A DNA stretch of 64,000 nt, from IMG/VR virus record IMGVR_UViG_3300026549_000045, positions 1-64,000 of that record; one strand, written 5' to 3'. Positions 2,369 to 54,527 of the stretch are shown here, one piece after another. The position numbers and the translations under genes are program-made. The notes under the pieces were generated by a model. The model saw nothing but the letters and a program-made list of their open reading frames with translations, did no database searches and was not told the origin of the DNA. The first letter of the stretch is position 1; every line of letters starts with the position of its first letter. This stretch comes from a virus. Taxonomy: Duplodnaviria; Caudoviricetes.

Positions 2369-2563
2369 CCCTCGCTACAAACATAATGTTAAACCTCTCT
2401 GTGTGACGTGGACGGACTGTAACTCCATCGTATCATACATCGAATAAAGATAGGCGGCAGCCTGTTTCCCCACTGTCAGCAGAGGTCGAAGTGTTTGTAG
2501 CAGAACGCATAAGGGCTGCCGCCTTTGTTCTGCTGCGACCTCCGACATAAAGATTGCAAGACA

Positions 2564-3478
2564 ATGGAAGAAAAGAAACAAACCACCCAGAGTCAGCCGA
2601 CGGCACAGCCCGCCGACGCGAAGAACCTGCCCATGCGCTACATCAGGCAGCCGTACCCCATCTCGGCTATCCAGGCCGATCTCTCCACTCAGCAGATACG
2701 TATTCTCGTCGGCATGATGCAGAGCGTGCAGGATGGCGTGCAGGCCATGTTCGAGCGCGGGCCCGTAGACGGTCAGCTGCAGTTGTTTCCCGACATGCAG
2801 GACGACCGTGTTAACATCGACTTTAAGTTCAGCGACGTCGTTGATCGTCCTGATGCCTATCGCGATGTGGAGCGCGTGGCTAAGAAGTTCATGGAGATGG
2901 TCTTCCGCTACGAAGACAAGCAGAAGGGCGAAGTAAGCCTGTCGCACTTTGTCGACGAAATCACCTATCCCTCCCGTGGAAGCAAGCGCGACAAGATTCG
3001 CTTCACCTTCACCAAGAAGCAAGCCCAGGCCGTCTTCAACTTCACCATGTACAGCCGCTATCTCCTGCCCGTAGTCACCTCTTCCAAGAGCAAGCACACC
3101 GCCCGTCTCTACATGCTTATTACCTCCGCACGTGGGTTCGAGCGAGACGACTCCGGCATCTTCCACTGGTATGTAACCTACGAAGAGCTGCGCCGTATTC
3201 TCGGCTGTGACGACAAGGACGAGCACGATCGCTGGTACCGCAAGTCTCAGAAGCTCTACAAGCATTTCAAGTCCGATGTGCTGCGTACCGCCCAGCGTGA
3301 ATTGAAAGCCCTTGCAGATGAAGGGAAGAGCGACTGTTGGTTTGACTTCACCGAACTGCCGGAAGGTTTCGACGGTGAACCTCTTCGCTTCGACTTCCTC
3401 GTACATCTGAACGATGTCAAGAAGCCCATCGAGAAGAAAGAGCCTGAGCAGGAAACAATGCCAATGTGGGGAGAGTAG
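2564..3478 (+). CDS. Rep_3-family (RepB-type) replication initiator
   Basis: Motifs SKSKHTARLYMLI, YEELRRILG and YKHFKSDVLRTAQREL..DCWFDF, typical of Bacteroidales winged-helix Rep proteins; adjacent iterons. Confidence 0.85.
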   Translation: MEEKKQTTQSQPTAQPADAKNLPMRYIRQPYPISAIQADLSTQQIRILVGMMQSVQDGVQAMFERGPVDGQLQLFPDMQDDRVNIDFKFSDVVDRPDAYRDVERVAKKFMEMVFRYEDKQKGEVSLSHFVDEITYPSRGSKRDKIRFTFTKKQAQAVFNFTMYSRYLLPVVTSSKSKHTARLYMLITSARGFERDDSGIFHWYVTYEELRRILGCDDKDEHDRWYRKSQKLYKHFKSDVLRTAQRELKALADEGKSDCWFDFTELPEGFDGEPLRFDFLVHLNDVKKPIEKKEPEQETMPMWGE

Positions 3479-3481
3479 GTT

Positions 3482-4387
3482 ATGGAAAACGATTATAGCA
3501 AACTTTGGGAAGACAGCCTCGCGATGATCCGCGAGAAGTACGGCGACAAGTTCCGGCAGTGGTTCGACGTATGGTTTGGTGATGTGCGCTTCGAGAGCTA
3601 CGCCCCCGACACGCACGTGCTGCTTATTCAGGTGCCGTCAAAGTACGTCTATGAGTTTCAGGAGATGAACGGTGCCAAGGATATCCGCTGGGCCACGAAG
3701 GAAGTCTTTAAGACTGACATCATACTGAAGTACCGTATTCTGGAGCCACGACGCGAGCCTGACTTTGCACAGGTTGCAGATTACCTGCGCCAGCAGGGAT
3801 GCACCGTTGGTACCGAACGTCCACACTTCAGGATTGCCGATGCTGAGAAGCGAATGCGCGACGGCCTGCGTTATTTCCTGGGCCACGACGGCCAATGGTT
3901 GCCAGCTTACGACAAGGTGGCCACCTGGCTCTCCGACAACAAGGGTAGGGGATTGGTCTGCATCGGTTACAGCGGTACGGGTAAGACGCTGTTGTGTACC
4001 AAGGTGCTGCCTGTCATCCTCGGCTATAAGAGCATCGTACAGTGTCCCGCCAAAGAAATGACGTTACGCAATGGCAATGTAGAGCGCATCGACGAGCTGC
4101 TGAAGGCGAAGTGTATCATCATCGACGGACTGGGCACTGAGTCTGTCGAGACCAACTACTACGGTCGCCGCCGCCGTCCTTTCGAGGAATTGTGTGACGC
4201 AGCAGAGCACGATGGCAAGCTGCTTATCATCACCACCAACTGCCTCTCTACGAAACCCATGCCCGACACGTGGGCTGGTAAGTCGCAGTTCCCCACATCC
4301 TTTGAGGAATACTATGGCCAGAACGTCATCAACCGCTTGAAGTCCATCACCACCACCGTCCTCTTCTCAGGACCCAATCTCTGGTAA
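3482..4387 (+). CDS. DnaA N-terminal-like domain fused to a DnaC/IstB-like AAA+ ATPase (helicase loader)
   Basis: N-terminus LWEDSLAMIRE..WFDVWF..LLIQVPSKYVYE resembles DnaA domain I; Walker A GYSGTGKT, Walker B IIIDGLGTE, IITTN, NRL. Confidence 0.75.
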   Translation: MENDYSKLWEDSLAMIREKYGDKFRQWFDVWFGDVRFESYAPDTHVLLIQVPSKYVYEFQEMNGAKDIRWATKEVFKTDIILKYRILEPRREPDFAQVADYLRQQGCTVGTERPHFRIADAEKRMRDGLRYFLGHDGQWLPAYDKVATWLSDNKGRGLVCIGYSGTGKTLLCTKVLPVILGYKSIVQCPAKEMTLRNGNVERIDELLKAKCIIIDGLGTESVETNYYGRRRRPFEELCDAAEHDGKLLIITTNCLSTKPMPDTWAGKSQFPTSFEEYYGQNVINRLKSITTTVLFSGPNLW

Positions 4388-4987: not shown

Positions 4988-5611
4988 TATCAATCCATTA
5001 CGCCTTCACGGTGCAAAATTACGAAATTTCAGCGAGCAAAAAGAAACTTTCGCCATTTATCAGAAATCACCCGAATTTCCCTGTTTTCACCTCAAAAAAA
5101 TAACTGTTCTGATAAATTTACGAAACTGGTGAGTATCAGTAAGTTAGCAGCCAAAACACAGCGAAAAACAGCCCTCCGAGTTATTTTCTTCCTGATAACT
5201 TGCAACCGCCTGACATTCAAGTCGTTGCGAAGTCGAAAAAGTGTATTTATCAAAAAATCGCGTTTTTCGGCGAAACTCAGAAATTTTTCTAAAACTCTCT
5301 GAAATTCCTGTATTCTTTCTCATTCATCAAGCAACGCGCACGTCTCTCCCTTACACCCACAATAAGTAAAACAAATATATACAAATAAAATAAATGACTG
5401 ATAATCAATAAATTATATATTATATATAGCTCGTTATTTTTCTTTTTTGGAACACTTATCCCACCAAGGAAATCAAAAATAACCCCGATTTTTTCGGATA
5501 AATAATTGATAATCAGCGCGTTAGGAGTTTATAAATGATTTTGCAACTATCTGATAACCTGATAACTCCTTAACAAAATTTTTTGCCGCCGCGCAGATAA
5601 CTCCCTCAAAA

Positions 5612-5643
5612 TTTGCACGTTACGCGAAAATCACCTAACTTTG
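5612..5643 (+). promoter_or_regulatory. Promoter of the intergenic sRNA
   Basis: TTTG...TAACTTTG with no ORF before the terminator at 5837-5883. Confidence 0.7.
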
Positions 5644-5649
5644 CGCCGG

Positions 5650-5883
5650 ATTTAGTGGTCTGATAACTGAAAAGCTTTTTTCATACGGCGTCGCGATGAC
5701 GAAAGGTACGAGCCGTGAGGCGTACAGGTTTCAATTTTTTGATTTGTTTTAGTAGATTAGTTTTTAAGTAGTTTGTTTTTAAACAGAAGAAACTGCAGGT
5801 TATACATCCCTGCACTGGGTGTTTACTTACTCACCCGCACCGTCGTCCCGTTGTAGCTTTGTGGGTGGCGGTGCTTCTTTTTA
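5650..5883 (+). ncRNA. Putative trans-acting antisense sRNA (~230 nt)
   Basis: Bounded by a promoter and an intrinsic terminator; contains several hairpins; terminator loop GUUGUAGCUUUGU is complementary to four gene starts. Confidence 0.7.
5837..5883 (+). terminator. Intrinsic terminator
   Basis: GCACCGTCGTCCC / GGGTGGCGGTGC stem followed by TTCTTTTT. Confidence 0.75.
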
Positions 5884-5953
5884 TGTTCCAACCAACATTT
5901 GCCCTTGATGCGGCGAGCGGCAAATATTATCTTTGTATCAAAACCCAATAGTT

Positions 5954-6697
5954 ATGATGAGACCATTCTACTTTGATCCTCTCGACCCAATGGGCCAGTA
6001 TTATTACGACCCGCTGCCTGAGCACCCGACGAAAGAAGAGCTGGAGGAGTACCAGCGCATGACGATGAAGATGCTACGCAACACCATCATCGGCTTCTTC
6101 GTTCTGCTTGCGGCCTTTGCCATTTGTTCGGTGTTCAGTTCCTGCGCCACGCAGAAGCAGGAGCATCAGGAGCAGACCCATGTTGTCGTTACCGATTCTG
6201 GCGCTACCGAGCATAGCCAGGCCGTACATGTCAGCAATCAGACTGTCAACATCGACTCCATTATTACTGCCGTCATGCAGCGCACACGCGAGGAGTTCGC
6301 CCGTCAGGAACAGGAGCATGAGATCGTGACAGAGACGCTGACGGAGACCGTCGATTCGCTGGGCCGTGTGGTCCGCCAGCAGCAGAAGACCACCGACCGC
6401 ACTCTCTCGCGCCAGGAGCAGCAGCGCATCGAGCGTCTGGAGCAGACCTTCGAGCAGCAGATCCACCTTGCCATCCGTGAGCACGACTCCATCTGGCAGG
6501 ACCGCTTTGCCCAGTACGAGGCCACGATGACCGACTCCCTGCAGTCCGTGCGCGACATGCAGCGTCAGACCAGCGCCACCAACCCCCTCACATGGTGGCA
6601 GCAGTTCCGTCTGCATCTGGTCAACATCGCCCTCTACGCCCTCATTATCATTGGCGTCATCTGGCTCATCCGCAAGAAATTTGGCAAATCCGTGTAA
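5954..6697 (+). CDS. Lipoprotein with C-terminal TM helix (unimolecular-spanin-like architecture)
   Basis: Hydrophobic segment ending in lipobox VFSS-C, coiled-coil middle, C-terminal TM IALYALIIIGVIWLI-RKK. A -7 box at 5928-5935 argues against the TTG start at 5933. Confidence 0.6.
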   Translation: MMRPFYFDPLDPMGQYYYDPLPEHPTKEELEEYQRMTMKMLRNTIIGFFVLLAAFAICSVFSSCATQKQEHQEQTHVVVTDSGATEHSQAVHVSNQTVNIDSIITAVMQRTREEFARQEQEHEIVTETLTETVDSLGRVVRQQQKTTDRTLSRQEQQRIERLEQTFEQQIHLAIREHDSIWQDRFAQYEATMTDSLQSVRDMQRQTSATNPLTWWQQFRLHLVNIALYALIIIGVIWLIRKKFGKSV

Positions 6698-7814: not shown

Positions 7815-7847
7815 CGTCAGATTTCAAACAAAGCTACACGTTAGAAT

Positions 7848-8354
7848 ATGGAAAAAGTAAAAGTCACTCAGGACGTTGTTTATCAGTTTATCACCGATCA
7901 CAATGTCAATCTCTCGGGTATCGCCCGCGAGATGCAGGCCAACCCTACGCTTGTTGCCGGATGCTTCAAGCGCAATGCCGACCGCAACGGTCGTCCTCGC
8001 CACTTCACCGCTCAGACACTGCCCCGTCTGAACGAAGCCCTCGATAAGTTTGCTGCTAACATGCGCCAGAGTGTTGTGGCCTTTGGTAGCGAGCAGACCT
8101 ACACCAACAACCGTGGTGTGACATACGACCCTGGCACCATACCTGCCGTCAAGCAGTTGTCTCAGTACTTCAACCTCACCCAGTTCATTGTGCGCATCCT
8201 CGGCTGGACAGAGAACAAGAAGAACCTGACATTCTCGTCGCCAACGGCTAAGATGTTCGGCTGCATCAGTCAGGATGATGTCAACCGTATCAATGCCGAA
8301 CTGCTTGCCGTGTCTGGAGTGCTCTCCAGCTATGAGGTAGTTGAAGATAGGTAA
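7848..8354 (+). CDS. Putative HTH DNA-binding protein
   Basis: VNLSGIAREMQANPTLVAGCF helix-turn-helix-like segment. Confidence 0.55.
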   Translation: MEKVKVTQDVVYQFITDHNVNLSGIAREMQANPTLVAGCFKRNADRNGRPRHFTAQTLPRLNEALDKFAANMRQSVVAFGSEQTYTNNRGVTYDPGTIPAVKQLSQYFNLTQFIVRILGWTENKKNLTFSSPTAKMFGCISQDDVNRINAELLAVSGVLSSYEVVEDR

Positions 8355-16955: not shown

Positions 16956-17177
16956 ATGGCAAAACAAGAAAAAGAATTCTTCCCTATTACGAGTGTAAGC
17001 AGGGATGATTTAGAAGAAAGAGGCTTCGATACAAGTGAGGTGGACGATGACACTATGGAACGTCTTGCCTCGAAGATGAGCGATGACTACTGCGAACAGA
17101 TGTTCTGGACATCTATGGAGATTATTGCTGAGATTATGGGTATTCCCAAGAGAGAAAAGAAGGAGGACGAAGAATGA
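16956..17177 (+). CDS. Hypothetical acidic small protein
   Basis: Packed ORF. Confidence 0.7.
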   Translation: MAKQEKEFFPITSVSRDDLEERGFDTSEVDDDTMERLASKMSDDYCEQMFWTSMEIIAEIMGIPKREKKEDEE

Positions 17178-32632: not shown

Positions 32633-32716
32633 CATTTTCGTAACCTCACGAAAATGATACGACGCACACATATATAATATATACGCGCGAGGGCTGCAAT
32701 GGTCCTTGCGCGTTTT
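32633..32716. terminator. Hairpins between convergent genes
   Basis: CATTTTCGT/ACGAAAATG and ACGCGCGAGGGC/GTCCTTGCGCGT followed by TTT. Confidence 0.6.
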
Positions 32717-33473
32717 AAATCTTGTCTGGCCCCGGCTCTGTAGCCATGCCATCAGTGGTGCCGAAATACTGATTGAACTGTACTTCCATGCGGTTGTGCC
32801 TTTCAAGCAAAGCATTGTGCCGTTGAAGCAGATCCTTGTATTTGGCTGTGATGTCTGCGACGGTAGCGTTCAGTCCGTTGAGCCTTTTTGTCAGGGCAGC
32901 AACCTCTGCGCGGACGGCTTCGTTGTTGCCCGCTTGTGGCGCGACAGGCACGGCAGGTTTGCGCCCTTTGCCCTTGCTGCACTCTCGGTTCTCGTCAATG
33001 AGAAACTTAAACGGAGAGATGTTGAAGTAGCTGCAAGTATGAAGAAAGTCCGTTACCTTAAAACGTCGGCGCAGGGTGAAACGCTCGTGTGGTTTCTGTG
33101 AGCTGGCTTCCATAGCCACGGCCACATCTTTCCAGTAGATGCGCCCTTCGCCGTCGCCGAAAGTCTGCTCAACAGCTTGTGTGTTCCACTCGATAGGATG
33201 CCAGTAGTCGAGTGGGATAGTAGCGTCTTCACGATTAGGGATGACGAAATTGTTGTTCTCTGCCACAAAATAATATACTGGCATACGCAAAGAGTTGCAC
33301 AATTTTATCAGTATTTGCACCGATACAACAATTTCGTTTGTCGTATATCGGCTTAGTACCTGCTGTCTTAGTCCGCAACGGCGGGCAATTTCCGTGCCTG
33401 TGATGTCTAAAACATCTGATAGACTGCTGAATAGCGTCGTGTTGAATTTCCATCTGTCCATACCATTTGTCAT
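32715..33473 (-). CDS. XRE-like HTH repressor candidate with C-terminal coiled coil
   Basis: ITGTEIARRCGLRQQVLSRY..LIKLCNSL; the only leftward gene after 5 kb, divergent from the replication operon. Confidence 0.7.
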   Translation of the reverse strand: MTNGMDRWKFNTTLFSSLSDVLDITGTEIARRCGLRQQVLSRYTTNEIVVSVQILIKLCNSLRMPVYYFVAENNNFVIPNREDATIPLDYWHPIEWNTQAVEQTFGDGEGRIYWKDVAVAMEASSQKPHERFTLRRRFKVTDFLHTCSYFNISPFKFLIDENRECSKGKGRKPAVPVAPQAGNNEAVRAEVAALTKRLNGLNATVADITAKYKDLLQRHNALLERHNRMEVQFNQYFGTTDGMATEPGPDKI

Positions 33474-33544: not shown

Positions 33545-33571
33545 GTTGTACCTTTGCCGCAAAGTTACAAC
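33545..33571. promoter_or_regulatory. Palindrome containing opposed -7 boxes (genetic switch)
   Basis: GTTGTACCTTTGCCGCAAAGTTACAAC: TACCTTTG (+, 33549-33556) and TAACTTTG (-, 33567-33560). Confidence 0.75.
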
Positions 33572-33584
33572 AATTTCGTGAAAT

Positions 33585-34034
33585 ATGAACGAAAATAAAG
33601 AGAAATTATCACTACGCATTAAACGTTATCTGAAGAACCTGGTGAAGGCTTTTTGTAGTCGCGATCCCTACCGTGAGGAGTTGGAAGAGACGAAGGAAAA
33701 GCTGGAGAAGTCTGCAGAGAATATGACGGCCATGCAGGACCAGTTGTACTCTGCGCTCGACAAGTGGAACGAGGTGGTGAAGACGTCGGAAGATCTGAGT
33801 AGTCAGGTTGAGAGTTGCGAGAAGTTGATTGAAAACCTGCGTGAACGTATCAACGAGAAGGACGAAGAACTGAAACAGCAGGGCAACGACTTCCGTGAGC
33901 GTATGGAGCGGATGAAAGGCGACTACCAGAAGCGATTGGACGAGTACAATAAGCTGGTGGACTTCATCCGTTCCAACAAGAATGTTCCCTACGAAATCGG
34001 TGTCATCATCGACAAACTGACCGAAAGAAGATAG
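33585..34034 (+). CDS. Coiled-coil hypothetical protein
   Basis: Heptad-rich ORF. Confidence 0.75.
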   Translation: MNENKEKLSLRIKRYLKNLVKAFCSRDPYREELEETKEKLEKSAENMTAMQDQLYSALDKWNEVVKTSEDLSSQVESCEKLIENLRERINEKDEELKQQGNDFRERMERMKGDYQKRLDEYNKLVDFIRSNKNVPYEIGVIIDKLTERR

Positions 34035-38226: not shown

Positions 38227-38844
38227 ATGATAAATAAAGAGTCAGGTCAGGACGTGGAGTCCATCGAATACGGCATCGACAGCGAGGCCATACGACAGCA
38301 GGCAGAAGCAAACCTGCAGAACGGCAACCGCGAGTACCGCAAGCTGAAACAAGAGCTTGACGGGCTTGACTTCAGGCGTGACTTCGTGAAGATCAACCTT
38401 GTGAAGACGAAGATGAAGCACATGGTAAACGTGGAGACCAACCGCCTGTGGATGCTGGAAATGGAAAAGCGCAAGAGCGTGAAAGACCTCAGCGACCTGC
38501 TCCTGAAGAAAGACCGTGCCGAATATGAACACTTCCAGGAACTGATGGCCGGACTGTCGCTGTTGCTTGACATGACGGACAACATATTCTTCGATATCAA
38601 TAAGCTGCTGAACCGTAACAACATCGGCATTGAGATGAACAACTTCCCAGAACTGAAGGCTGCAAAGAAGACTGTGCAGGATATGGCAATCAAGGAGCAG
38701 TACGGGATGGCACGCTACAAGGAAGACCTATGGAACGACGAGTCAGAGCGCATATACAAGTACCTGCTTGAGCGCTGCGCCACCTACCGTCGTAAGGTTG
38801 ACCGCATAGAGTCAAAGATGAAGAAAACTGAAAATAAAGGATAG
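38227..38844 (+). CDS. Hypothetical helical protein
   Basis: Packed ORF. Confidence 0.75.
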   Translation: MINKESGQDVESIEYGIDSEAIRQQAEANLQNGNREYRKLKQELDGLDFRRDFVKINLVKTKMKHMVNVETNRLWMLEMEKRKSVKDLSDLLLKKDRAEYEHFQELMAGLSLLLDMTDNIFFDINKLLNRNNIGIEMNNFPELKAAKKTVQDMAIKEQYGMARYKEDLWNDESERIYKYLLERCATYRRKVDRIESKMKKTENKG

Positions 38845-42204: not shown

Positions 42205-42641
42205 AGACACAGGTAGCCGCAGACTGAATGGATTTCCTGCGAAACTGCGGCGCACCGACAGCGGAGGGTGGTCTTGTTTATAGCACGTGCCAACATTTAC
42301 GGGCTATCGGCAAGTATCAAAAGACAGTTCAGAAGGTCGCGGGTTCGATTCCCGCCTTGCGTGCTAAGCAAGTAGTTCAGCTGGTTAGAACGTTTGAAGG
42401 TTGCAAAAGTTTGCAGGTTCGAGCCCTGCCCCGTCTTGGACGGGTGGCGGAAGTGGTAGACGCGGGTCTTTTTGGTAGATCTACTTATCGCAAAACAAAA
42501 AATGACGTTGCCGCACGACACTCATACGGAGAGGCCGTCGCCTCCCGAGAAGGATCTTGCTCTTGCTGAGTGTGGCAATGGTTCTTGCTTTTGTTCATGC
42601 CTTTGTCGCTGAAATCATCTGCCGTCGCCGGGCCTGTGTCT
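42205..42641 (+). ncRNA. ~440-nt structured RNA with two circularly permuted tRNA-like modules
   Basis: Closing helices AGACACAGG/CCTGTGTCT, GCAGA/TCTGC and GATTTC..GCGA/TCGC.GAAATC; T-arm > acceptor hairpin > D-arm modules at 42328-42398 and 42413-42464. Confidence 0.8.
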
Positions 42642-42682
42642 TTTCATAGAATACGAATATTGACAAATACAAAGCTACAATT

Positions 42683-43549
42683 ATGTCAAATACAACTTCA
42701 GACTTAAAACCTATAAAGGGTAAGTGTATCTACACAACCAAAGGTGCCGCACGAGAGTATGGCCGTATAGGCTGTAACTTCTTCAAGGGATGCCCGCATG
42801 AGTGTGAATACTGCTACCTTAAACGTGGTGCGCCATCGGCAGAACTGGGTGGTAATACTGCTGTGCTGAAGAAATGTCTTGTCAACGAAGACAAGGCACT
42901 TGAGATATTCTGCAAGGAGGCACGGAAGCATATTGAAGTGCTTAAAAAGTATGGTGTATTCTTATCGTTCTCAACAGACCCGATGCTGACGGAGACCAGA
43001 GACCTGACGTTCTCTGCCATCAACTTCTGCATCAGTAATGACATCCATGTGAAGGTGCTTACCAAAAATGCGGATTTCATTCTCTACGACCGAATGAAAA
43101 ACCTGTGTGGCTCTACTGTAGCCAGGGACTATGTGGAGTTTGGCTTTACGTTGACAGGGCGTGACGATATGGAACCCAAGGCTTCATCAAACCACGACCG
43201 CATCGAGGCTATGAGGCTGTTGTATCAGCGTGGATTCAAGACTTTTGCCAGTATTGAGCCGGTCATCGACTGGACGCACTCAAAGATGGTTATAGACCTT
43301 TCGCTTGACTGCTGCAACCATTACAAGATCGGGCTTCGCTCTGGTGTGAAGAAAGACTATTATTCCGTATTGCGAAGCGGCATGGCCATTCAGGAAATGG
43401 TGGAGAAGATCGTGGCAGCAGGACGTACAGTCTACCTGAAGGAGAGCACCCGTGCCTTATTGCGCAGATGCTATATAGAAGAAGAGAGTGAGCGCATATT
43501 GAGTAAGACGCTTGACATTGACGGCAATCCATACAAAACAATTAAATAA
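42683..43549 (+). CDS. Radical SAM protein
   Basis: GCPHECEYCY (CxxxCxxC), FSTDP, VLTKN, ASIEP. Confidence 0.85.
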   Translation: MSNTTSDLKPIKGKCIYTTKGAAREYGRIGCNFFKGCPHECEYCYLKRGAPSAELGGNTAVLKKCLVNEDKALEIFCKEARKHIEVLKKYGVFLSFSTDPMLTETRDLTFSAINFCISNDIHVKVLTKNADFILYDRMKNLCGSTVARDYVEFGFTLTGRDDMEPKASSNHDRIEAMRLLYQRGFKTFASIEPVIDWTHSKMVIDLSLDCCNHYKIGLRSGVKKDYYSVLRSGMAIQEMVEKIVAAGRTVYLKESTRALLRRCYIEEESERILSKTLDIDGNPYKTIK

Positions 43550-45914: not shown

Positions 45915-47630
45915 ATGGCAGGACTACACGACATCGACAAAAAGGACTGGGAGAGGCTGTTGAAAGACAACGGATTCCAATTCGAGCGGGCGGGTAAGCA
46001 CCATATCTGGAAGCATGAGGACGGCAGGATTATACCTGTGCCTATGGGTCCTAAGATAAGTGCTCCTGTAGCCCGCAGGATGGTGAAGGAGAACAAGCTG
46101 GAGGGTGCCCCCTTCGGATGGAGCGACCTGTGGAAGAACGCCGATGCAAAGGCTCAGGCTATTGAGCAGCAGCGCAAGGAAGAAGAGGAGCGCCGCCTGC
46201 AGGAAAAGGCAGAGCGAGAAGCCAAGGAGCGTGAGGCAGAAGAGCGTCGCCAGAAGGAGGCCGAGCGTCTGAGGAAAAGAGCCGAGGATGCCCGCCGTGA
46301 GAAGGAACAGCGTCAGATAGCAGCTGATGCCGCCAACCGCGAAGCATTGGAGAAAGCCAAGGCTGCACTTGCGGATACTGACGAACAGCAGCCTACAGCA
46401 TCGACAATCCCCACCACTACACCTGTGGCAAAAGCAGCACCAGTTGCCAAGCCTACTGAAACATCAAGCAATTTAACCCCTAAAGCAGTGATTTATATGA
46501 ACGAAAAAAGATTGGAGAACTTCCACGAATACCTCTGTGCGGTCGTGGACTACTATCACAAGAACGGCAAGATCCTAAAGAATTTCTCTTTCCTTGCCAA
46601 GCAGTACAGGGTGAAAGGTATCACCCAAGAAATCTTTAAGAAATACAAGTTGGGCGACCTGAAACCCGGAGAGAAACCCTCACGCAAGCTGTCGGACACC
46701 ATCCGTTTGGAAATGGCCGAGCAGGACATGAAGGCCAGAGAACAGATGCTGGCAGCCTACCAGAAGTCGCAGGACGAAAAGGAGGCCGAACAGCAGCAGG
46801 AGCCTGAGCACGAGCAGACACTGGAGGAACGTATCGACACCTTCGAGGCACGCTTTGACCTGCTTGGCCCTATGTTCGCACAAATAAGCAGTCAGCTGGC
46901 CGAAAGCTACAAGAAGAATTTCGGTCCTCACGCCGACGATTTGCTGGGTAAGGACACATGGCAGGTGCGTCTTTCTCCAGAGCCTTATCTGAACGAGTGG
47001 GCAAACAATGTGGAGTTTGACCTGACAAGGATTGTGTTTGACAATGCCGAACCCGAAGAGGTGAAGATGCTGTTGCCAAAGTGGAACGACAAGATTCTCC
47101 ATGCCTACCTGACGTGGCTCTATGGCGGCAAGGACGGTACGCAGATTAAGCTGGACTTCGACGAGCGCGGCAAGGCTGACTCACAGAACGATGCTCTGAT
47201 AGACCTGTTGCGCGACCAGGGCTTGCTCGACCAGATGATGTTTGTGAAGATAGAGTCGTGGAAAGGCAATGCCCATTGTGTAGCCGTCTATAAGGATGCA
47301 CCCGACATTCTGATGGTCATTGGTGAGGGCGCAACGGACTTCTACACCGTAGCCGATGATATCTGGTACTCTTATTGTGGCGATACGGTACTCTGTCCAG
47401 AGCGTAACTTCAGCTTCGGTGGCTGGGGAACACGTAGCATGGTAGGCTTCTGCCTGCGCCAGATGCTCTCTGAGGATAATCACAAGGCAGCCTTGAAGGA
47501 GCAGCAGAATGTGAGCAAGCAGATGCACGGCAAGCTGATGGACGACATCAATAACTACCGCGACATCTGGCAGATGTATCACGACGACTTCAACAAGCAG
47601 CAGCGTAAGAACATGGTTGATTTTGGATAA
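45915..47630 (+). CDS. HicA-like domain fused to a coiled coil and an unknown C-terminal domain
   Basis: WERLLKDNGFQFERAGKHHIWKHEDGRIIPVP. Confidence 0.7.
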   Translation: MAGLHDIDKKDWERLLKDNGFQFERAGKHHIWKHEDGRIIPVPMGPKISAPVARRMVKENKLEGAPFGWSDLWKNADAKAQAIEQQRKEEEERRLQEKAEREAKEREAEERRQKEAERLRKRAEDARREKEQRQIAADAANREALEKAKAALADTDEQQPTASTIPTTTPVAKAAPVAKPTETSSNLTPKAVIYMNEKRLENFHEYLCAVVDYYHKNGKILKNFSFLAKQYRVKGITQEIFKKYKLGDLKPGEKPSRKLSDTIRLEMAEQDMKAREQMLAAYQKSQDEKEAEQQQEPEHEQTLEERIDTFEARFDLLGPMFAQISSQLAESYKKNFGPHADDLLGKDTWQVRLSPEPYLNEWANNVEFDLTRIVFDNAEPEEVKMLLPKWNDKILHAYLTWLYGGKDGTQIKLDFDERGKADSQNDALIDLLRDQGLLDQMMFVKIESWKGNAHCVAVYKDAPDILMVIGEGATDFYTVADDIWYSYCGDTVLCPERNFSFGGWGTRSMVGFCLRQMLSEDNHKAALKEQQNVSKQMHGKLMDDINNYRDIWQMYHDDFNKQQRKNMVDFG

Positions 47631-51192: not shown

Positions 51193-51212
51193 TAATTTAA
51201 AGCTACAACATT

Positions 51213-51353
51213 ATGAAGACAAACGAAATTATTGAAAAGAAAGTCATCGCCCTGCACAAAGAGGGTTGGCAAGTACCTAACATCGCCAGCATTGCCCGTG
51301 TAAAACCAGACGTGGTAAAGCAGATATTGAGAGAGAAGAACCTGCTGATGTAA
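51213..51353 (+). CDS. 46-aa HTH-like small protein (not in the ORF track)
   Basis: MKTNEIIEKKVIALHKEGWQVPNIASIARVKPDVVKQILREKNLLM. Confidence 0.65.
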   Translation: MKTNEIIEKKVIALHKEGWQVPNIASIARVKPDVVKQILREKNLLM

Positions 51354-54094: not shown

Positions 54095-54164
54095 ACTTTT
54101 GAAAACAAAAATAAAGAAGGACTGAATATGATTAATAAGAATAACAAATAAAAGCTACAACATT

Positions 54165-54527
54165 ATGACAAAAAATGATTTCAAGAAACTGGTGCCTGAC
54201 GTAATGTGTCAGGACTTGGTAGTAACGACTGACAACCCTGCAACATTGAGCGAAAAGGCTCGTAACGTGGCCGACATGATGGAGACGGGTCTGATAGCAT
54301 ACGACTTTACTGGAACTGCAAAGGGCTACCGTCTGAAAGTGTTCACCAGTTATGCCTTTAAGACGTTTCTCGACGCATTGAAGCCAGGTGAAAAGGTGAC
54401 TAATGCGCGTGGCCGTGAGTTCACTATTGAGAGTGAGCCTTATGTTGAAAACCTCAGAATGTGTGTCCGTGCCAATGGAGACTCATGGTTTTGTGATACA
54501 ATTTACGATAAAGATAAGGAGTATTAG
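54165..54527 (+). CDS. Hypothetical protein
   Basis: ORF preceded by AAAGCTACAAC. Confidence 0.7.
   Translation: MTKNDFKKLVPDVMCQDLVVTTDNPATLSEKARNVADMMETGLIAYDFTGTAKGYRLKVFTSYAFKTFLDALKPGEKVTNARGREFTIESEPYVENLRMCVRANGDSWFCDTIYDKDKEY

Follow-up and report, generated by a model that had tools for sequence, protein, structure and literature searches.

A candidate trans-acting antisense RNA of a Bacteroidales phage-plasmid with its seed in the terminator loop

The unit at positions 5649–5882 of a 135,134-bp virus record, judging from its sequence and from those of its relatives, probably encodes a trans-acting antisense small RNA (sRNA) whose seed lies in the loop of its own terminator. We read the sRNA as a trans-acting antisense regulator because its loop is complementary to the leaders of genes elsewhere on the element and because loop and targets change together between lineages. 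The window analysed here comprises the first 64 kb (64,000 nt) of the record; positions beyond it are given in record coordinates and marked G000. A sequence-only reading of the window had proposed an independent sRNA with the terminator loop serving as antisense seed for several gene starts, and this proposal has held up: the loop is conserved on many different stems, it changes in concert with its targets, and the matching sites show a strand bias.

Promoter, body and terminator of the predicted sRNA

The predicted sRNA is about 234 nt long and is encoded on the plus strand (5649–5882), its 5′-end being placed by a –7 box and its 3′-end by a U tract. The promoter on the same strand (5612–5643) consists of a –33 element TTTG (5612–5615), a 20-nt spacer and a –7 box of the TAnnTTTG type (5636–5643), a consensus that matches the one described for Bacteroides (PMC7366714). 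These elements are invariant in close relatives, and the same architecture is found in distant lineages. At the other end of the unit, a plus-strand terminator hairpin (5837–5874) is formed by pairing of 5837–5850 with 5862–5874 and is followed by the U tract at 5875–5883. The hairpin folds at –20.4 kcal/mol with an 11-nt apical loop at 5851–5861 (RNAfold), and one of its C-G pairs is replaced by U-A in a compensatory change in the relative L002. The seed, a 13-nt loop region at 5850–5862 (plus strand), contains a core 8-mer, GUUGUAGC, that is common to all lineages.

No ATG-initiated ORF was found within 5649–5882; together with the –33 and –7 elements and the hairpin with its U tract, this bears out the earlier description of an ORF-free unit bounded by a promoter and a terminator. 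The unit thus has the general attributes of a trans-encoded sRNA, namely its own promoter, a Rho-independent terminator and no conserved ORF. Folding of the whole unit gave a z-score of –2.2. A search of Rfam 15 at gathering and permissive thresholds returned no family for the sRNA, with nothing better than E = 6 in the region 5400–6000, and BLAST of the unit against phage and plasmid collections revealed no similar DNA. A minus-strand small ORF was considered as the source of the loop motif and rejected: no ATG lies within reach, and a 44-aa GTG-initiated ORF begins 35 nt off.

Upstream of the promoter, GATAAC boxes are repeated on the plus strand (5551–5604), starting with a tandem CTGATAAC at 5551–5566 and ending with a box at 5594–5604, just before the –33 element. 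Repeated boxes precede the sRNA promoter in all lineages, with one of this type directly 5′ of the –33 element in L058, L061, L062, L064 and L065; a regulator of this promoter may bind to them. In several of the RNAs, the 5′ hairpin contains a GAUAAC-like sequence as well, which could form a second functional loop. Downstream of the terminator (5898–5935) there is TGCCCTTGA, with a –7 box about 20 nt further on; the same arrangement follows the terminators in L014, L017, L061 and L062, and in some lineages a structured, GC-rich block of about 100 nt, itself conserved, is inserted in this region.

The loop complement is enriched in front of start codons

The reverse complement of the loop 13-mer was found where the sequence-only reading had located it, with 12 nt matched at 42669–42680 and 11 nt at each of 7828–7838, 51199–51209 and 54151–54161. 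As had been reported, these matches end 2, 9, 3 and 3 nt before the ATGs at 42683, 7848, 51213 and 54165, respectively, and the copy inside a coding sequence near 46903 was confirmed as well. Allowing for up to two mismatches, the window contains 11 matches to the loop complement compared to 1.4 expected, a number reached in none of 100 shuffles. A genome-wide scan of the motif against start codons gave the same picture: five out of six plus-strand copies of the 9-nt core stand directly before ATGs, while chance would give about 0.5 copies per strand. When all 9-mers in the 25 nt preceding gene starts of the 135-kb record are ranked by recurrence, the loop-core complement comes first, above Shine-Dalgarno-like words.

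Among 153 start regions, defined with a simple and crude ORF caller, six contain a match of at least 9 nt to the loop, compared to 0.23% of random windows, and the loop is equalled by only 0.13% of random 13-mers from the genome. Since RNAduplex predictions with the whole sRNA were swamped by long spurious duplexes, pairing energies were calculated for the loop alone. Eight start regions pair with it at –14 kcal/mol or better; for shuffled loops, the mean is 0.45 and the maximum four. Both sub-types of site, extended on the 5′ or on the 3′ side, are matched by the loop. None of the 9-mers of the sRNA outside the loop has its complement in more than two start regions. Therefore, the earlier suggestion that U-rich tracts of the RNA complement A-rich starts is not supported: enrichment is confined to the loop, and other parts of the RNA have none. 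Overall, the sRNA possesses a conserved accessible seed, and sites complementary to it are enriched in target leaders.

Predicted target sites in the window and beyond it

All sites in the window described below are on the plus strand. The 12-nt site at 42669–42680 (–16.8 kcal/mol) precedes the gene of a radical-SAM protein (42683–43549). About 240 nt upstream of this site lies a tRNA-like element (42372–42430; Rfam tRNA, 32 bits, model positions 7–64 only), which is the only Rfam hit of the whole window.

The 7828–7838 site (–15.2 kcal/mol) belongs to the leader of a gene (7848–8354) for a 168-aa HTH-like protein, for which database look-up provided weak HTH or CII-like leads only. The site is kept upstream of the orthologous gene in most lineages. 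In the close relatives G001 and G003, this gene starts 6 nt earlier, with an ATG 4 nt past the motif; in the present genome the earlier ATG reads AGA and the next ATG is used (7839–7850).

The 51199–51209 site, in front of the gene of a 46-aa HTH-like protein (51213–51353), is operon-internal with no promoter nearby, and it is kept in G001 despite a differing upstream flank. The 54151–54161 site, in front of the gene of a 120-aa protein (54165–54527), is likewise kept in G001, across a module boundary. Database look-up of the latter protein gave no lead. The same gene is one of four, including those at 38227 and 61850, that are preceded by the 10-mer TAACAAATAA, and these are all four copies of this 10-mer in the record.

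Two further candidates are located at predicted mRNA 5′-ends. The site at 33559–33571 pairs with the loop over 13 of 13 positions (two of them G:U) and has the best energy of all start regions (–17.7 kcal/mol). It coincides with the 5′-end of the rightward transcript in a divergent switch region (gene 33585–34034, then primase-helicase), and it is the least certain target because it overlaps an opposite-strand –7 box. The divergent promoters of this region have nearly abutting –7 boxes that form an inverted repeat (33545–33571), and they are situated between a repressor-like gene on the minus strand (32715–33473) and the primase-helicase operon. A weak candidate is found at 2361–2382, where a –7 box is followed by a near-copy of the 8-mer with one extra A at the start of a Rep_3 leader (ORF 2525–3478; Rep3_N, E = 7e-11). 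In this leader (2361–2406), the promoter and the near-copy are followed by a 6-codon upstream ORF, and the Rep_3 frame opens only at 2525, with TTG.

Beyond the window, the motif occurs in the leader of a gene for a ParA-type partition ATPase (G000 128747; sites 128733–128743 and 128703–128710) and at the start of the leader of a replication-initiator gene, rep (132836; site 132813–132821), which is followed by a gene for a DnaC-like loader. If the genome is circular, this parA/rep end of the record adjoins the sRNA. Two positions of the motif recur: an 8-mer version 4–8 nt past a –7 box, that is, at the predicted mRNA 5′-end, and an 11-mer version before the AUG. The spacing between motif and AUG is 2–9 nt, mostly 3–5 nt, and this is also the case at operon-internal sites with no promoter. 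The parA leader holds both versions, and the 13-nt loop covers both.

The leaders of this record have other recurrent features. At least seven genes are preceded by Shine-Dalgarno-like words of the AAGGAGGA type, often followed by CTGA(C)TATG (for example, at 17174, 34048, 51872, 60929 and 62224), which is unexpected for a phage of Bacteroidota, since mRNAs of this phylum are said to do without Shine-Dalgarno sequences. Between 9393 and 32065 and elsewhere, many unrelated early genes share a stop-to-start junction consisting of TAAAAC, a few bases, TACGAC or TACAAC, one or two bases and ATGGCA.

The same loop core is carried by RNAs with unrelated bodies

In close relatives (G001–G003 and metagenome contigs L013–L019), the RNA is kept at 78–97% identity (seven variants). 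Modular indels of 75 nt and about 31 nt distinguish these RNAs, and no reading frame is preserved among them. A GNRA-capped hairpin has been swapped and two stems carry compensatory changes, while the loop and its closing pairs are invariant. Variation in this set is low, and consensus folding scored one double-sided change. The 75-nt insertion in the L001 sRNA (3700–3775) has a homologue, in reverse-complement orientation, in the 5′ part of the G004 RNA (L004 2540–2605) and resembles a palindrome-like structured module that occurs in either orientation. In non-homologous replacement modules of the relatives, other genes are again found 3′ of the 11-mer, including a second, unrelated ParA type and another Rep.

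Sequence-based homologue scans returned only near-identical loops, so scans with Rep and ParA protein alignments were used to look for covariation. About 20 related rumen phage-plasmid contigs carry an equivalent RNA of 95–400 nt with the same promoter type, a few kb from rep and parA; one of the contigs from the Rep and ParA scans is part of a water-buffalo rumen MAG classified as Bacteroidaceae. The bodies of these RNAs are largely unrelated. Each RNA ends in a 3′ GC-rich hairpin with a U tail, built on at least 12 different stem sequences, and the apical loops begin with the same 8-mer, GUUGUA(G/A)C. The shortest version, of about 95 nt in L065, is the hairpin and little else. L129 has the entire unit in the opposite orientation with respect to parA, the hairpin, the U tail and the sense of the loop having moved together.

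Some sequences were set aside. Extra hits of an exact 18-mer scan of viral contigs (L007, L008, L011 and L012) fall in unrelated coding DNA and are chance matches. G005 (L054), which encodes a 49%-identity relative of the downstream gene, was tried for comparison and has neither motif nor RNA, with a different repeated element upstream. In this unrelated phage fragment (100–7600), an upstream element of about 60 nt is present in six copies, each before a different gene; each copy ends with ATAGGAGATA, and an ATG follows a few bases on.

Loop and targets change in concert

Loop position 7 is A instead of G in four contigs (L062/L103, L064/L105, L104 and L114). The parA leader motif has U in place of C in exactly these four contigs, and C in all contigs with the G loop. 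The rep motif was compared in two A-loop contigs, L062 and L064, and reads U for C in both. Loop and target thus covary in related phages as the proposed antisense seed should: G/C and A/U are perfectly associated over 20 contigs, many of which are close relatives of one another, with at least two to three independent co-changes. Mapped on the ParA tree, the loop switches state three times, two of these on supported branches, and every switch is accompanied by one in the target; on the Rep tree, L064 with its A loop is the sister of L058 with its G loop. Because there are only two to three independent co-changes, a formal sign test is not significant.

Other sites and positions follow the same trend. 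The third target, the orthologue of the 7848 gene, likewise has U in L114. In L101 a further loop position has changed from U to A, which is matched by a change from A to U in the site of the same gene, and the variant in the parA leader of L136 is compatible with G:U pairing. There are two exceptions: the 7848 orthologue of L064 keeps C despite the A loop, and a mismatch other than a wobble pair occurs at one rep site of L058.

Alternative explanations

Co-variation of seed and target is also predicted by a double-stranded DNA site for a protein of changed specificity. According to this explanation, the motif is an operator for a regulator of the element, the copy in the hairpin is another operator, and no RNA–RNA pairing takes place. 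Several copies are indeed located at +1 to +10 of promoters, the classic operator position, and a change in protein specificity would alter all copies, in both orientations, at once. However, we consider an operator improbable. The inverted copy always occupies the apical loop of a U-tailed GC-rich hairpin, of which at least 12 different stems occur, and in L129 it inverts along with the hairpin. Copies at genes are almost always in the mRNA sense: over 21 contigs (540 kb), start regions contain 70 sense and six antisense copies, whereas the 61 copies elsewhere are near chance expectation, and 25 copies lie in hairpin loops. The spacing to the AUG, mostly 3–5 nt also at promoterless operon-internal sites, and the gap between two copies in one leader, which varies from 17 to 40 nt, both argue against an operator, as does the lack of a palindrome in the site. 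Finally, the iterons of both replicons were considered as a source of the motif and rejected, since their sequences differ from it.

Pairing could also occur with a different outcome, either activation or stabilisation of the mRNA or titration of the sRNA by leaders acting as sponges; in our estimation, this has a low probability. The parA and rep sites at the extreme 5′-end are 19–35 nt from the AUG, where a duplex might just as well protect the 5′-end as occlude the start, and lineages with the A loop show only 5′-end sites. Most sites in this genome, however, lie right at the start codon, and a duplex there should interfere with initiation. Against activation or stabilisation, too, known pairings of Bacteroides sRNAs with the translation initiation region repress (PMC7366714).

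It is very improbable that the RNA is real but uses its loop for another purpose (protein binding or termination), the leader motif being an independent cis element or an opposite-strand –7 box with incidental complementarity: junctions of this phage are stereotyped and A-rich, ending ACAAC or ACGAC before many ATGs, a frame that the loop complement fits, and the 11-mer includes the reverse complement of the –7 box (TAnnTTTG), yet any one loop would match the top start-region 9-mer by chance with a probability of about 2e-5, matching flanks not yet counted, the 51199 and 54151 sites lack the final –7-box base and keep 11 complementary nt, the opposite strand, by reading of the sites, has no –33 element at the required distance, and loop and leader motifs change together in separate lineages. 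Nor is the loop complement well explained as a mere generic start context: the motif resembles the A-rich junction and yet is a distinct, top-ranked sub-motif that tracks the loop variant.

Proposed mechanism and role

We return to the reading of the unit as a trans-acting antisense sRNA. From the patterns described above, we infer that the sRNA is transcribed, that it pairs with mRNAs, that the direction of its effect is repression and what its biological role is; transcription start sites follow from the –7 boxes. In the proposed mechanism, the sRNA of this Bacteroidales phage-plasmid would act through the apical loop of its terminator, pairing over 8–13 nt with the 5′ leaders of the element's own mRNAs. 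The 8-nt loop core would nucleate the pairing, which would then be extended to 11–13 nt in a lineage-specific way; a full helix of 12–13 bp inside the 11-nt loop requires some opening of the stem. Predicted partners are the leaders of parA, rep and the HTH-like gene at 7848 and, in this genome, those of three further genes. They would fall into two classes, with sites at the 5′-end just past the –7 box (parA and rep) and sites close to the AUG (parA, the 7848 gene, the radical-SAM gene, the small HTH gene and gene 54165). A duplex adjoining the start codon would presumably keep the 30S subunit off leaders that have no Shine-Dalgarno sequence (PMC7366714) and so lower translation; one at the 5′-end might act on ribosome loading or on the stability of the mRNA. 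The G and A variants of the loop, with their matching targets, may represent specificity types that underlie incompatibility or immunity.

The sequence-only reading had linked the regulon to the enforcement of lysogeny. With parA, rep and one HTH-like gene as the conserved core of the targets, control of copy number, partition or incompatibility is at least as much indicated as control of lysogeny. A more far-reaching reading, which we put forward as tentative and rather doubtful, is that the loop 8-mer serves as a programmable address with which one sRNA ties together replication, partition and phage genes, the G and A types being incompatibility or immunity groups through which related elements could live side by side in the rumen or shut each other out. 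If this were true, it would be the first described sRNA-based circuit for maintenance and immunity in Bacteroidota mobile elements.

Riboregulation in Bacteroidota is poorly known. In the literature we found no description of such an RNA in phages or phage-plasmids of Bacteroidota, nor a phage- or plasmid-borne sRNA regulon in this phylum. What the comparison supports is a compact code between seed and target, built on an 8-nt loop core that has natural specificity variants and on three or more conserved target genes. If pairing takes place as proposed, it would explain how copy number and partition are coupled to phage genes in large rumen phage-plasmids, and it could explain what sets their incompatibility or immunity types. 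It would also mean that a terminator loop can be the seed where mRNAs lack Shine-Dalgarno sequences.

Comparison with known regulatory RNAs

GibS and other trans-encoded sRNAs of Bacteroides thetaiotaomicron come from the same phylum and share with the present RNA the promoter/terminator layout and pairing at starts devoid of Shine-Dalgarno sequences (PMC7366714). GibS, however, has a single-stranded 5′ seed and chromosomal metabolic targets, whereas the RNA described here has a terminator-loop seed and targets on a mobile element. The Rfam search revealed no homology between the two.

RNAIII of Staphylococcus aureus is a chromosomal quorum-sensing effector whose C-rich loops bind Shine-Dalgarno sequences. 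Its 3′ hairpins, including the terminator hairpin H14, resemble the present RNA in that apical loops act as the seeds with which several mRNAs are bound at their start regions; sequence and context are unrelated.

CopA of R1, RNA I of ColE1, Inc RNA of IncB/I1 and RNA II of pLS1 are copy-control countertranscripts, which are encoded antisense in the rep leader and are fully complementary to it. The likeness to these RNAs consists in a hairpin-loop seed, a target at the leader or start of rep and a loop that sets specificity, that is, incompatibility. The present sRNA differs from a countertranscript in that its gene is 3–8 kb away from rep and parA and in most contigs shares their strand, and in that complementarity extends over only 8–13 nt; parA and phage genes are also among its predicted targets.

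In P1 and P7, heteroimmunity results from matched differences in c4 and c4 targets, to which the G and A loop types are parallel. The c4 antisense RNA of these phage-plasmids (immI operon) is described as trans-acting and as pairing near the ribosome-binding region of an mRNA of the same element (PMC8546580, citing Citron and Schuster 1992). On this account, c4 and the present RNA are alike as small trans-acting antisense RNAs encoded by phage-plasmids, with short sites near the ribosome-binding region. While c4 is processed from the operon transcript that it controls and acts with two short recognition elements on one target operon (icd/ant), the RNA described here is flanked by a promoter and a terminator of its own, carries a single loop seed, is predicted to address several unlinked targets, parA and rep among them, and shares no sequence similarity with c4. 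It also departs from P1 c4 and P4 CI, which are processed from the transcript of the regulated operon and have their targets on either side of them in that transcript, in that its targets are 2–70 kb away. By analogy, the sRNA would work most like P1/P7 c4 and the plasmid copy-control RNAs with hairpin loops, and it is a member of neither family.
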